Shown piece by piece: positions 10,769-19,431 of a DNA stretch of 37,348 nt. A model generated the notes under the pieces. That model worked only from the letters and a program-made list of their open reading frames with translations, was not told the origin of the DNA and did no database searches. Position numbers and translations under genes: made by a program. Source of the DNA: a virus (lineage: Duplodnaviria > Caudoviricetes); IMG/VR virus record IMGVR_UViG_3300038316_000088, positions 1 to 37,348 of that record, one strand, 5' to 3'. Each line of letters opens with the position of its first letter. Positions within the stretch are counted from its first letter, which is position 1.

Positions 10769-11538
10769 TGTCTGTGGATAGGTACACGTTGAAGGATAAA
10801 GATAAATTATATCTGATCCCTCATTCTGATGCACATGTTGGAAGTGAGCAGTACAATGAACTATTCAGAGAATACTGGCGAGATACAATAAAAAGAATCA
10901 CCAAAAACCCCACACGTGGCTATCTCAATGGAGATATGTGTGAATCAGCCACTAAACACCTTGCAAATAGCAGTTACCGGCAACAGATGAACATAAACGA
11001 CCAGATCGAATACACGGTTGATTTCCTGAAATGGTTTGATAACTGGAAATGTTGCACCATGGGAAACCATGAGATAAGATTAGAGAAAGAATTTGATATT
11101 GATATTAATCGTATTATTGCTAATGAATTGAAGTGTACTCCTTGCTATCAGTTTTATGACCAGTTTATGGTTAATGGTAAACCATTCACAGTGTATGTTG
11201 CTCATGGGAAAGGATCCTCAATGCACCATTACACAGCAGAAAGTAAAATAATAAGAGATAGCAGAGGAATAGAAGCCGACATCCTAATTAACGGGCATAA
11301 CCACAGATGCGGACATTTCAGCCTTCCATTAGTTGATCCGAGTAACCCTATTGGTTTAAAACGCAAACATTATGTTTTTAGTGGTGGATTTGTTTCATAT
11401 CAGGGATCGTATGCGGATGCAATGCAATTACCACCTTTACCTGAGGCGTTTTGTTATCTCACAATTGATAAGAATTTAAGAGTTGAAAGTAATATTTTTT
11501 ATATAGATGAACGATGCCCAGAGCTTCTAAAAGTTTAA
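10765..11538 (+). CDS. Calcineurin-like metallophosphoesterase
   Basis: DAHVG, NGD, GNHE, HG and GHNH motifs. Confidence 0.85.
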   Translation: MMSVDRYTLKDKDKLYLIPHSDAHVGSEQYNELFREYWRDTIKRITKNPTRGYLNGDMCESATKHLANSSYRQQMNINDQIEYTVDFLKWFDNWKCCTMGNHEIRLEKEFDIDINRIIANELKCTPCYQFYDQFMVNGKPFTVYVAHGKGSSMHHYTAESKIIRDSRGIEADILINGHNHRCGHFSLPLVDPSNPIGLKRKHYVFSGGFVSYQGSYADAMQLPPLPEAFCYLTIDKNLRVESNIFYIDERCPELLKV

Positions 11539-11657: not shown

Positions 11658-12560
11658 ATGTATGGATATATTTATCAGATCCAAAATTTGGTTAATGGTA
11701 AATTATACATAGGCCAAACGACTAAAGAACCAGAAGTGAGAAGATTTGCACATTTCAATTCATTAAAAAATTCAACACATAAAAATAAACACTTTCAAAG
11801 AGCTTATGATAAATATGGACAATCTAATTTTAAATTTAGTGTAATTGCATGGTTCAATTCAGAATCTGAACTTAACAATGCTGAAAAATATTATATTAAT
11901 AAATATTCTTGTTTAAATCCAAATAAAGGATATAACATTTATCCTGGAGGAAATAATAGTCAGATCCCTTTAGAATCTCGGTTAAAAATGAGTAGGTCCC
12001 ATACTGGGAAAAAATTAACCAAAGAACACAAATTAAAAATTAGTAAAGCCACTAAAGGAAAAAATAATCCAATGTATGGAATGAGAGGAGAACTATCTCC
12101 TAGTTATGGAAAACATCTTTCTAAAGAAGCAAAACAAAGATTAAGTGAATTTCATACAGGTAAAAAACTTTCCAATGAAACAAAACGAAAATTGAGCGAA
12201 TACCGAACAGGCAGACCTATGTCTGAAGAAACAAAGAAAAAGATTAGTGATGCTACTAAAGGCGAGAAAGCATATTGGTATGGTAAAAAACGCATATTTT
12301 CGGAAGAGTGGAGAAAAAATGTTTCGTTGGCCAGTATGGCAAGTTCAAAGGATTTGAGAAAGGATAATAGTACAAAACAAAGAGGCAAATGTTTATTTGG
12401 TTTTACAAGTGCTATTCTTCAAAAGGATAAAAATCCAGAGATGAGATGTTGGAGAAGCCAAATAAGATATAAAGGTAAACGTACTTCATTAGGGTGGTTT
12501 AACGACCCATTGAGTTGTGAGATTGTTTATTTTTTAGTTTGGAATGAAATTTATAATTAA
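11658..12560 (+). CDS. Free-standing GIY-YIG homing endonuclease with NUMOD3 repeats and an AP2-like C-terminus
   Basis: YIYQIQN..LYIGQT, E..YI, GYN; repeated GKKLS.ETK.K.S units; WRSQIRYKGKRTSLGWF; visibly AT-rich. Confidence 0.9.
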   Translation: MYGYIYQIQNLVNGKLYIGQTTKEPEVRRFAHFNSLKNSTHKNKHFQRAYDKYGQSNFKFSVIAWFNSESELNNAEKYYINKYSCLNPNKGYNIYPGGNNSQIPLESRLKMSRSHTGKKLTKEHKLKISKATKGKNNPMYGMRGELSPSYGKHLSKEAKQRLSEFHTGKKLSNETKRKLSEYRTGRPMSEETKKKISDATKGEKAYWYGKKRIFSEEWRKNVSLASMASSKDLRKDNSTKQRGKCLFGFTSAILQKDKNPEMRCWRSQIRYKGKRTSLGWFNDPLSCEIVYFLVWNEIYN

Positions 12561-14474: not shown

Positions 14475-14971
14475 ATTAAGGGATATATTTTACTACTTTT
14501 ACTATTTTTGGCATCCACACCCACCGTGACGGCTGGTTATGTGGGAGCATACAACGTCTACGATGATGGGTACACAGTAGGATCCACAGCCCGATGCAGT
14601 TGTGGAGTAGGACATTATGGTTACACAACCAGTTACTTCGTAGACATGTGTCCAAACTGTGGTGGGAACCTGTATTTTGAACAGGGAGCGTACAGCGGCC
14701 CTGCCTATACCAGTCCTGAAGGGTTATGGGCATGCTCTGTGTGTGACATGGATAGGAAATCAGGGATAATTAACCCTATTCCCCAGAATTTTGCGCACAG
14801 TGCGGTAAAAGCCATGACCATCGAGGATACTGGTTAACCCGAACCAACAAACCAGCACCACCAAAACCAGAGCCGGCTCCGGTTGAAAGTGTTAAAAAGC
14901 CAACAGTGGCTGATAAAATAAAAAGCCACATGGATAAAGGTTGGCCGGAGTTATTCTTACTCGGAACATGA
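14475..14971 (+). CDS. Secreted Cys-rich (zinc-ribbon) protein interrupted by a 35-nt insertion; join(14475..14753,14789..14971), 153 aa
   Basis: Signal peptide IKGYILLLLLFLASTPTVTA from an ATT start after an AGGAGTG RBS; removing the insert gives CSVCDMD|FCAQCGKSH, a Pro-rich linker and a stop 32 nt before the next gene. Confidence 0.7.
14754..14788 (+). other. Candidate bulge-helix-bulge (archaeal-type) mRNA intron
   Basis: The insert is a hairpin, the flanking exons pair with each other, and BHB cut geometry removes exactly the 35 nt that restore the frame. Confidence 0.6.
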
Positions 14972-15582: not shown

Positions 15583-16560
15583 GTTTTAAAATTAAACACA
15601 ATCCACAACACCGACTGCATAAAAGGGATGAAAACACTACCAGATAACTGCGTTGATTTAATCATCGCAGACCCACCATACAATATTAAAAAAGCAGAAT
15701 GGGATAAATGGAAAAGCCAAGAAGATTACCTATCATGGATGATGGAGTGGATTGGTGAATGTGAACGTGTTTTAAAGGATAATGGTAGTTTTTACTGGTT
15801 TCATAATCAGATGCCTGTGATTAGTCGTTTGATGTGTCTTTTAGAGGATGAAACAAGTTTCGTGTTTAAACAGTTAATTGTCTGGAATAAACGATTTGTT
15901 GAAAGTCCTCGGAAATGGTATTTTGATAATGTTATAAAATCTAATATGGATCGTAATTATAGGAGTATGGCTGAATATTTATTATTTTATACTTTCCAAG
16001 ACGAAACTGGGTTAACAACTGTTAAGTTGGATTTAAATAATTTCACTACTCTTAGACAGTATTTTAAGGATTTCCAAGAAGCATTGGGATTAGCTAAAAA
16101 AGAAATAGTTGATTTAATTGGTCAATGTGCTGATCATCCCTTTAGATGGGGAAGTAGTCAATGGGATATGCCTACACCAGAAACATATCAACAATTGTGT
16201 GAGTTACCTTTAAAGAATAATGGATTTATACGCCGTGAATATGAAGACTTACGCCGTGAATATGAAGACTTACGATACACATTTAACAACCAAAAAACCC
16301 ATCACTCTATTTGGAACTATGAAATAACACCAAAACAGGGGCATGTAACCCCCAAACCATTACTCATAATCGAAAACATCATAAAACACAGCAGCAACCC
16401 ACAAGACACAATCCTAGACCCATTCATGGGAAGCGGTACAACCGCTCACGCCTGTAAAAACCTAAACCGTAATTATATTGGCTATGAAATTACCCCCACC
16501 TATTTTAATCTTATAAAGGAACGCCTTAAAAATGTTGAAAAACCATTAACAGCCTTCTAA
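15583..16560 (+). CDS. Beta-class N6-adenine/N4-cytosine DNA methyltransferase (first ATG at 15628; real start probably upstream)
   Basis: IADPPY before HVTPKP and LDPFMGSGTT; conserved LNTIHNTDCIKGM precedes the first ATG; internal 21-bp duplication (RREYEDL x2). Confidence 0.9.
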   Translation, partial: VLKLNTIHNTDCIKGMKTLPDNCVDLIIADPPYNIKKAEWDKWKSQEDYLSWMMEWIGECERVLKDNGSFYWFHNQMPVISRLMCLLEDETSFVFKQLIVWNKRFVESPRKWYFDNVIKSNMDRNYRSMAEYLLFYTFQDETGLTTVKLDLNNFTTLRQYFKDFQEALGLAKKEIVDLIGQCADHPFRWGSSQWDMPTPETYQQLCELPLKNNGFIRREYEDLRREYEDLRYTFNNQKTHHSIWNYEITPKQGHVTPKPLLIIENIIKHSSNPQDTILDPFMGSGTTAHACKNLNRNYIGYEITPTYFNLIKERLKNVEKPLTAF

Positions 16561-17897: not shown

Positions 17898-19431
17898 CCG
17901 TTTCCCATTAGGCCCTGGCACATTCGCAATCGAGGCAAGCGAGGGACGGTGGAAAGCATTCCCACATCTTATTCTGATTATTGAATTGTTAATGTACATG
18001 GTGAATGGTAGGTGTAACCGGTTAATGGTATTATGCCCACCAAGACATGGTAAATCCTGGCTCATCAGCAAATACTTTTTAACATGGTTCCTAGGCACAT
18101 TCCCAGACCTCCGGATAATATTAGCAACACACCGGGCCAGTTTCAGTGCGAAATGGGGACGCATAACCAAACAACTACTAGAAAGGTATGGTAAAAAATT
18201 ATTCGTCTCCGAAATGCTAACCGAAGAAGGTGAACGAGTCCTCGTAAAAAATGATGTTGAACTTGACAAGTCCAGTAACGCAGCATACCGATGGGACATA
18301 TCAGGCCATGACGGCGGCCTATTCACCGGGGGTATAGGTACAGGCCTGTTAGGTGAGGGTATGAATGGTGGGATCATAGATGACCCTACTAAGGGATTCA
18401 CCAAAGCAAACCGCAAAAGTCACCAGCAAGAACTGAATGACTGGTATTACACTGAATTTAAAACACGGGCTGATACAGACCTGGCCACTGGCAAATCACC
18501 CTGGATATGTTACATTGCACAACGCCTGAATAGGAAGGACCTTGCAGGTCAGATATTATATGGTTTAACCGATGAAGACCCTGGAGAATCACACATTGAT
18601 GCAAGAGAAGCCCTCCACATCCTACGAAACGGGGGCAACATACCAAACGGGACATGGGTTGTGTTAAACCTCCCTGCCCTGGCAGAAGAAAACGACGTTC
18701 TCGGTAGACAACCCGGCGAGGCCCTATGCAGGCAGATTAAGAATGAATCCGAGTTAGAACAGATACAACGTGAAATGGGAAGCTTCCGTTTTGAAGCATT
18801 ATACCAGGGCCAACCCAGGGAACGTGAGGGTAAAATCTTCAAATCAATATGGTTCAAAGACGAGCATGGTAACCTCCTTGAGGATCTGTTTGTAGTTGGA
18901 TCTGATCTCAAAGTACAGAATGAAATACGATACTGGGATGCAGCTAGTAGTGGAGAAGAAGGAGACAAGACAGCCAGCCTCAAATCAACCTATAATAAAG
19001 AAACTAAAACCCTTATTTTCAAAGGACCTTTGGTTAATTATCCTTACAGTGCCAAAGGCGTGATTGACAAATATTATCAAATTAGCAATGATGAACAGAA
19101 CGTCCAATCTATTTTTGAACAGGAACCCGGAAGCGGAACCAAACTATTAGTAGCACGTTTAAGGCGGGATAAAAGGTTAAAACAGCGTAAAACAATCAGG
19201 CTTGATAAAGTCCGGGAGAGTAAAGCTGACCGGGCCTTTGACTTGGAAGTTTTATGTGAAGACCATCGGGTCCGCTTTGACAAGGAATCGTTAACACATA
19301 GGGATGTTGAAACCATCATAAACCAGTGGATTGAGTTCACAGGTGAAGAAGGTGGAGAAGACCATATTGTGGATGTTAGTACAGGCAGTGCAAGATGGTG
19401 GTTACGGCCCCGTAGGAAAGTTGTAGTATGA
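17863..19431 (+). CDS. terL: Terminase large subunit
   Basis: Walker A PPRHGKS, Walker B GIIDDP, LYQGQP, RYWD and EDHIVD nuclease motifs. Confidence 0.95.
   Translation: MPQANPRDVVDDRFPLGPGTFAIEASEGRWKAFPHLILIIELLMYMVNGRCNRLMVLCPPRHGKSWLISKYFLTWFLGTFPDLRIILATHRASFSAKWGRITKQLLERYGKKLFVSEMLTEEGERVLVKNDVELDKSSNAAYRWDISGHDGGLFTGGIGTGLLGEGMNGGIIDDPTKGFTKANRKSHQQELNDWYYTEFKTRADTDLATGKSPWICYIAQRLNRKDLAGQILYGLTDEDPGESHIDAREALHILRNGGNIPNGTWVVLNLPALAEENDVLGRQPGEALCRQIKNESELEQIQREMGSFRFEALYQGQPREREGKIFKSIWFKDEHGNLLEDLFVVGSDLKVQNEIRYWDAASSGEEGDKTASLKSTYNKETKTLIFKGPLVNYPYSAKGVIDKYYQISNDEQNVQSIFEQEPGSGTKLLVARLRRDKRLKQRKTIRLDKVRESKADRAFDLEVLCEDHRVRFDKESLTHRDVETIINQWIEFTGEEGGEDHIVDVSTGSARWWLRPRRKVVV

Follow-up and report, generated by a model that had tools for sequence, protein, structure and literature searches.

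A probable bulge-helix-bulge mRNA intron in a cysteine-rich protein gene of a tailed virus with a likely methanogen host

The DNA analyzed here (the window) is a complete virus record of IMG/VR (IMGVR_UViG_3300038316_000088; 37,348 nt, classed as linear, completeness 100) with genes for the terminase, portal, head, tail and tape-measure proteins of a tailed virus and, on the plus strand at positions 14475-14971, a gene for a Cys-rich protein that is interrupted by an insert of 35 nt. The open reading frame (ORF) starting at 14475 reads through WACSVCDMD up to position 14753, then drifts, loses the conserved motif beyond CxxCDxD and terminates at 14835-14837, for an unspliced product of 120 amino acids, and a second frame resumes at 14789 (FCAQCGKSH) and runs to the stop codon at 14969-14971. 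Deletion of nucleotides 14754-14788 joins the two frames into a product of 153 amino acids containing the motif CxxCDxD-FCxxCGxxH, which is present without interruption in insert-less homologues, for example P0002, a protein 94% identical over the matched part (P stands for unique homologous proteins, L for DNA loci of relatives and X for sequencing runs). The gap that insert-less homologues leave in the alignment is exactly 14754-14788. Exon 1 (14475-14753, 93 codons) encodes a predicted signal peptide and the CSCG, CPxC and CxxCDxD motifs; its start codon is probably ATT, and the relative L013 shares this ATT-I-K start, preceded by a GGAGG-type site. Exon 2 (14789-14971, 60 codons and a stop), as judged from homologues, encodes FCxxCGKxH, W-L, a Pro-rich linker and a variable tail. 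A first-pass annotation, made from the letters of this DNA, had proposed the insert as a candidate bulge-helix-bulge (BHB) intron, and the coordinates it gave for the insert, the frames, the helices and the bulges were all reproduced on the window sequence.

The insert itself (14754-14788, plus strand; hereafter the site B intron) contains an inner helix (14755-58 paired with 14779-82) and a hairpin (14762-65 with 14774-77). A second position, site A, lies between 14718 and 14719, inside the Glu codon of TSPE, 35 exon nucleotides upstream; it is empty in the window and carries BHB inserts in the relatives L001/L020 (35 nt) and L013 (59 nt). Neither the insert core, in viral contigs, nor the full insert, in 65 loci, produced a match, which gives no hint of this insert in other genes; a degenerate site B pattern matched viral contigs 40 times, never within the family of the interrupted gene. 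No homologue of the interrupted protein was found among annotated phages. A sigma-70-like promoter over the insert was dismissed, given that such matches occur at chance level (6 found, 4.3 expected) and that the model is the wrong one for archaea.

Assembled contigs of seven of 23 runs, DNA and RNA, were compared (X1, X12, X13, X15, X16, X17 and X19; X2-X11, X14, X18 and X20-X23 lie outside this set). In the RNA runs X15 and X16, which derive from one biogas-digester sample, one contig each joins 14753 to 14789, skipping 35 nt with a slide of 0, at depths of 6.2 and 7.25 and with 168 and 72 nt, respectively, on the shorter side of the joint. The X16 contig differs from the window by 3 letters in 317. 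In the X15 contig, 19 letters differ and 17 are gaps ahead of the joint (among those listed, mostly upstream of 14503), and 6 letters differ behind it. At site A, one contig each from the RNA runs X16 and X19, which belong to two studies, joins L013 positions 1417 and 1477, skipping 59 nt with a slide of 1, and the two contigs differ from L013 by 3 and 2 letters over 380 and 686 nt. All these RNA contigs carry the exon letters of the insert-bearing alleles rather than those of the nearest insert-less ones, and among the matches listed, X15, X16 and X19 show no RNA contig with an insert. Thus, the junction that the first-pass annotation had proposed to look for in metatranscriptomes does occur in RNA contigs, at the expected nucleotides. 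Of the remaining data, X17 yielded two short pieces of another allele and is uninformative; X19 also contains an ordinary insert-less allele at depth 44, as well as a window-type contig for which 30 of the 87 loose letters are displayed and which is not counted for splicing.

Both pairs of junctions fall after the second base of each bulge of a predicted BHB fold (window 14753/14789; L013 1417/1477, within the slide of 1 nt). In the window, the outer exon-exon helix pairs 14737-14746 with 14791-14800 (10 pairs, three of them G-U; probability of the A14746-U14791 pair 0.85), and the central helix pairs AUGG (14748-14751) with CCAG (14783-14786), with three of the four pairs formed (probability 0.75-0.78) and A14748 opposed by G. 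The 5' bulge (14752-14754) is a clean 3-nt bulge with the cut after 14753; the 3' bulge (14787-14789, within an element that extends to 14790) is part of a 2x5 internal loop because C14747 and U14790 are mismatched, and here the cut falls after 14788. The inner pair G14755-C14782 has a probability of 0.98. This arrangement is the minimum-energy fold of 14737-14800 (-21.0 kcal/mol, z -3.28, none of 200 shuffles as good), whereas the insert folded alone is unremarkable (z -1.03, 25 of 200 shuffles as good). An alternative register, with C14747 paired to G14786 and A14748 bulged, is 1.5 kcal/mol worse, has a probability of 0.05 and leaves the cuts identical. The window thus lacks both the canonical 4-bp central helix and two clean opposite 3-nt bulges and conforms to the relaxed, HBh'-like class (PMC5829648), with one intact bulge next to the central helix H and the inner helix h' and with the other bulge disrupted. 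A plain scan for BHB geometry without energies matched far too often to be of use; with an energy filter, which had been relaxed with knowledge of the 14754-14788 site, three BHB-like sites remained on both strands of the window, with 14737-14800 ranked first. The two weaker folds, at 11345-11410 on the plus strand within an intact exonuclease ORF and near 18580-18652 on the minus strand, antisense to the terminase gene, are probably due to chance. No Rfam family matched the window, L009, L013 or L020 at the gathering score, and this, together with the size of 35 nt, sets the insert apart from self-splicing group I and group II introns.

Among the DNA of relatives (22 loci on 19 distinct contigs), 16 of the 19 distinct contigs are without any insert (one of them, L017, covers site B only), and, as the first-pass annotation had anticipated, insert-less alleles read D-F/Y-C across site B. 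L009 contains the window-type insert minus one base (34 nt) at the same junction and in another frame, so that insert length varies freely together with the frame. L001/L020 and L013 carry inserts of unrelated sequence at site A (L001:174-220; L013:1412-1481), and both sites are occupied together in no DNA allele seen. In the window, L009, L001/L020 and L013 alike, cuts after the second bulge base restore the conserved protein. The central helix has three of four pairs in L009, as in the window, and all four in L001 and L013; L001 is a canonical BHB with two clean opposite bulges (forced fold -23.9 versus -24.4), and L013 is near-canonical, with an intact outer helix and, in its minimum-energy fold, the 5' bulge opposite one unpaired base. 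Exon letters and insert match each other: with the two exon contexts in which it occurs, the window insert reaches -26.0 and -28.6 kcal/mol, against -14.8 to -18.8 with nine other contexts, and an equally good fold is kept by only 16 of 1000 synonymous recodings of the window and 3 of 1000 of L009. Between the window and the nearest insert-less DNA alleles (L004, L006 and L007) there are 9 differences in the 40 nt around site B and 17 in 120 exon nucleotides, and at site A the nearest insert-less alleles differ from L013 at 8-9 of 40 nt. DNA with the exon letters of the window retains the insert in every case seen, namely X1 (a DNA run, possibly the source of the window), X12 (a DNA run with the 3' end of a window-type insert in a loose contig end), L009 and X13 (probably DNA); the presence of the insert in several independent DNA assemblies also speaks against the misassembly that the first-pass annotation had considered. 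The family is a recombination mosaic in which the C-terminal tail (window 14870-14971) and a middle segment have been swapped among alleles independently of the intron (L009, L004, L007, L013; P0046, P0048); L009, for instance, is the intron patch of the window joined to an L004-type tail. The contigs of two further loci, L021 and L022, lie in bins labelled Saccharibacteria and Gammaproteobacteria and are likely mis-binned viral contigs.

A profile search identified 185 clusters of homologues at 50% identity, with the best 150 listed. Of the 219 unique proteins collected, 192 were scored after 27 without the N-terminal core columns had been set aside. Of these, 159 are whole (144 by rule and 15 by eye) and 33 are broken; 26 of the 33 broken proteins break at site A (13) or site B (13) and 7 elsewhere, with the reservations that some breaks may be contig ends or errors and that earlier breaks score lower and are under-sampled. 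The 13 breaks at site B directly follow CxxCDxD and represent 8 lineages by eye, in 7 of which the next residue is Arg; the 13 at site A directly follow S/TSPE, in 7 lineages. Two of the proteins, P0106 and P0133, continue into the shifted frame of exon 2 via Gln-Ile or Gln-Asn, which, on the protein sequences, points to inserts of 32 and 62 nt that end like that of the window and keep the first-position mismatch. P0052 (WP_286243101.1 of Methanobacterium ferruginis, on a contig of 2.80 Mb) breaks right after site B and P0167 (on a contig of 3.10 Mb) right after site A, which makes them candidate introns on methanogen chromosomes, one of them in a cultured species; used as a query, P0052 retrieved one distant insert-less viral locus. 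Other break places were noticed in P0112, P0214 and P0143, either one residue past site B (on 5 and 12 contigs) or after EGL, with a long insert and a shifted exon frame behind it, and these could mark third and fourth intron positions. In a subfamily formed by P0058, P0215, P0216 and their kin, from Methanobacterium bryantii and relatives, several Cys residues are replaced (YDP, STVTD) while the second half of the motif is kept; its members P0156 and P0167 break at site A.

The interrupted protein consists of a hydrophobic N-terminal helix, which would be a signal peptide or an anchor, a Cys-rich beta domain, a Pro-rich linker and a variable tail, and the motifs CPxC, CxxC and CxxCGxxH recur across the family. 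No Pfam family scored above its cut-off for this protein, and the 185-cluster family is without Pfam coverage. The structure model of the insert-less P0018 (pLDDT 89.5) produced no Foldseek match at E 0.001 (best E 0.13), and its best structural match was 5cxm_A (Z 7.8, rmsd 3.2, 74 residues aligned), where a Z below 8 may reflect a common arrangement. The top 44 structural rows (Z 7.8 to 3.5) are all Rieske protein chains or chains from complexes that contain such a protein, and the next, unrelated row has Z 2.8. A Rieske-like beta fold is accordingly predicted for the interrupted protein, at a score below the level called clear, and the protein is likely a surface metal-binding protein. Both intron sites fall within the Cys-rich domain, so that without splicing the protein would be missing its last Cys and His residues.

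As regards the host, a protein encoded at 652-1443 on the plus strand (phrog_37889) combines a pseudomurein-binding repeat (Pfam PMBR, 35.9 bits, cut-off 24.9) with a C39 peptidase (Peptidase_C39_2, 48.6 bits, cut-off 24), and homologues of the interrupted gene carry the names Methanobacterium sp., M. ferruginis and M. bryantii; a host among the Methanobacteriales is therefore likely. The window contains no tRNA genes, and neither an EndA nor an RtcB gene was detected in this one virus genome, where the control searches produced matches in 4 and 10 of 14 genomes. Two other features of the window are a free-standing GIY-YIG homing endonuclease gene at 11658-12560, directly after the exonuclease gene, and a DNA methyltransferase gene (ORF 15628-16560) with a short tandem duplication at 16220-16270 that makes RREYEDL appear twice.

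Collectively, these observations make it very likely that the 35-nt insert is an mRNA intron that is removed by the EndA of the host and rejoined by RtcB, and we are marginally more confident still that the RNA is truly spliced, by whatever route. The exon letters and the insert of the pre-mRNA would fold into the BHB with cuts after 14753 and 14788, host EndA would cut after the second base of each bulge, host RtcB would likely reseal the exons, and only the spliced message would yield a protein with the last Cys-x-x-Cys-Gly-x-x-His ligands. The roles of the two enzymes in this scheme follow archaeal splicing as it is known, with EndA cleaving behind the second base of each bulge and RtcB ligating the exons (PMC2738675, PMC4090602). 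Most likely, the intron is an old element that is tolerated at two fixed positions in a single gene family and that recombination has carried from allele to allele along with the exon patch around it, and its presence would tie the expression of the gene to the splicing capacity of the host. The proposal of the first-pass annotation that the virus depends on host tRNA splicing to express a secreted protein thus gains support, with the enzymes presumed to be those of the host; site A in the relatives and the spread of the breaks across the family go beyond what that annotation had noted.

Several points weigh against this interpretation. The RNA support consists of assembled contigs of depth 6-8, one per run, the site B junction rests on one RNA sample, and no DNA run from the RNA samples was compared; for these reasons, there is room for a strain that lacks the insert. 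X13, filed as RNA-Seq but judged to be probably DNA, holds the insert unspliced. The strictly forced BHB of L013 is 3.5 kcal/mol above its minimum-energy fold, and in the synonymous control L001 performs weakly (85 of 1000 fold as well) and L013 is borderline (45 of 1000). Most breaks in the family are known from protein only, with DNA seen for four inserts. Because the alleles are mosaic (P0046, for example, has the exon 2 of L013 with another, insert-less middle), an insert-less recombinant with identical flanks can exist. There is also a tension concerning the enzyme. We take the EndA of Methanobacteria to be of the alpha4 type. Relaxed motifs are described as being cut only by (alpha-beta)2 and epsilon2 EndAs, and the euryarchaeal enzymes as mostly alpha4 or alpha'2 (PMC5829648). 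Given the relaxed motif at site B, either the enzyme would be more tolerant in vivo or the motif would form better than predicted.

The alternative that survives best, although we consider it unlikely, is that the RNA samples hold strains without the insert in their DNA, through precise loss or as a pre-insertion allele, and that the insert-bearing copies are dead pseudogenes. The prevalence of insert-less alleles among the DNA contigs, the one at depth 44 in X19 and the mosaic nature of the gene would all suit this explanation, as would the fact that the RNA contigs without the insert and the same-letter DNA contigs with it come from different samples, with no DNA run of samples S15 and S18 compared. 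It would have to apply at two sites and in two studies, and homologue searches found no insert-less DNA or protein with the flanking letters of the window or of L013. Among 19 candidates for longer proteins with exon 2 of the window, the one found was the insert-less P0002, which has a different tail (weak evidence). The L013-type protein cluster has six members, every one of which reads into the insert, including one present on 31 contigs. As for dead pseudogenes, an open and conserved exon 2 follows each of the inserts seen in DNA, and inserts of unrelated sequence share the BHB geometry.

Splicing that is genuine but proceeds by a route other than EndA and RtcB, by means of a different nuclease and ligase of the host or a factor encoded by the virus, appears more improbable again. 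The relaxed site B motif, the first-position mismatch that seems to be kept in P0106 and P0133 (judging from protein) and the many viral ORFs of the window without known function could accommodate such a route; against it, the cuts follow the EndA rule, the second base of each 3-nt bulge (PMC2738675), the inserts at site A of this gene have canonical or near-canonical motifs, and 35 nt is too little for self-splicing, with no match in Rfam. Slightly more improbable still is a jump of reverse transcriptase across a stable hairpin, with the cellular RNA remaining unspliced. Both inserts form strong stems and all RNA data are cDNA libraries, but such jumps are tied to direct repeats (PMC13149111), which amount to 0 nt at the site B junction and 1 nt in L013, and the reading frame is restored by both junctions, which coincide with the BHB cuts; nor, again among the matches listed, does an insert-holding RNA contig appear in X15, X16 or X19. 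Least likely of all is ribosome hopping, which the first-pass annotation had offered as an alternative and for which the hairpin behind the take-off codon might be cited: it is not needed for RNA contigs that lack the insert, the take-off and landing codons differ, and the splice geometry is common to the inserts of 34, 35 and 59 nt at the two sites.

With EndA- and RtcB-dependent splicing as the preferred explanation, the existence of two intron sites in one gene may reflect either a selected splice switch or tolerated elements in places where the exons already pair. A broader proposition, that tRNA-type introns are kept at two alternative positions, across wide sequence divergence, as a selected switch gating a secreted metal-binding protein family of Methanobacteriales viruses and chromosomes on host EndA, and that the EndA of Methanobacterium cuts a relaxed motif outside tRNA, is a tentative one, to which we assign somewhat less than even chances. 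Were it true, methanogens and their viruses would routinely use mRNA splicing as a level of gene expression that has been overlooked. A frame-breaking viral intron with RNA junctions at two sites suggests a virus that relies on host tRNA splicing for a protein, a route described, in the accessible literature, for almost no archaeal protein genes. In annotation, genes of this kind end up as truncated hypothetical proteins, WP_286243101.1 being an example, and the family, with a cultured species at hand, offers a test of the specificity of Methanobacteria EndA and of intron gain, loss and sliding.

Previously known systems provide several points of comparison. In the accessible text of PMC7714728, cbf5 is named as the sole earlier archaeal mRNA intron, to which the 5' untranslated region intron of Haloferax volcanii HVO_1309 is added; the available parts of PMC12397907 and of bioRxiv 10.64898/2026.10.13.758758 mention no further archaeal mRNA case, and a literature search that left most subscription journals and supplements outside its reach found no protein gene of a virus or methanogen with a BHB intron. 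Like archaeal tRNA introns, which have BHB ends and span 11-175 nt (PMC2738675), the window insert combines a small size, a hairpin body and the same cut geometry, but it is without a tRNA body. The putative in-frame 12-bp introns of an archaeal virus genome, for which splicing was not demonstrated (Peng et al. as described in PMC2738675), are likewise short inserts in archaeal viral protein genes, but the inserts of the present family differ from them in changing the frame, in having BHB ends and in being absent from the RNA contigs. The case of HVO_1309 is similar in that the mRNA is euryarchaeal and processing would be by the splicing endonuclease, and splicing of HVO_1309 appears to matter for its expression (PMC7714728); its intron is untranslated and cellular, whereas that of the window breaks a viral reading frame. 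A further parallel is with the crenarchaeal cbf5 intron, which is also short, located in coding sequence and often of relaxed BHB type, with cuts after the second bulge base, removal required for a working protein and presence dependent on the allele (PMC2738675). Unlike cbf5, the window gene is viral, with copies on Methanobacterium-sized chromosomes, its host is probably a methanogen of the euryarchaea, in which cleavage of relaxed motifs would not be expected, and its introns occupy two alternative positions within one gene.
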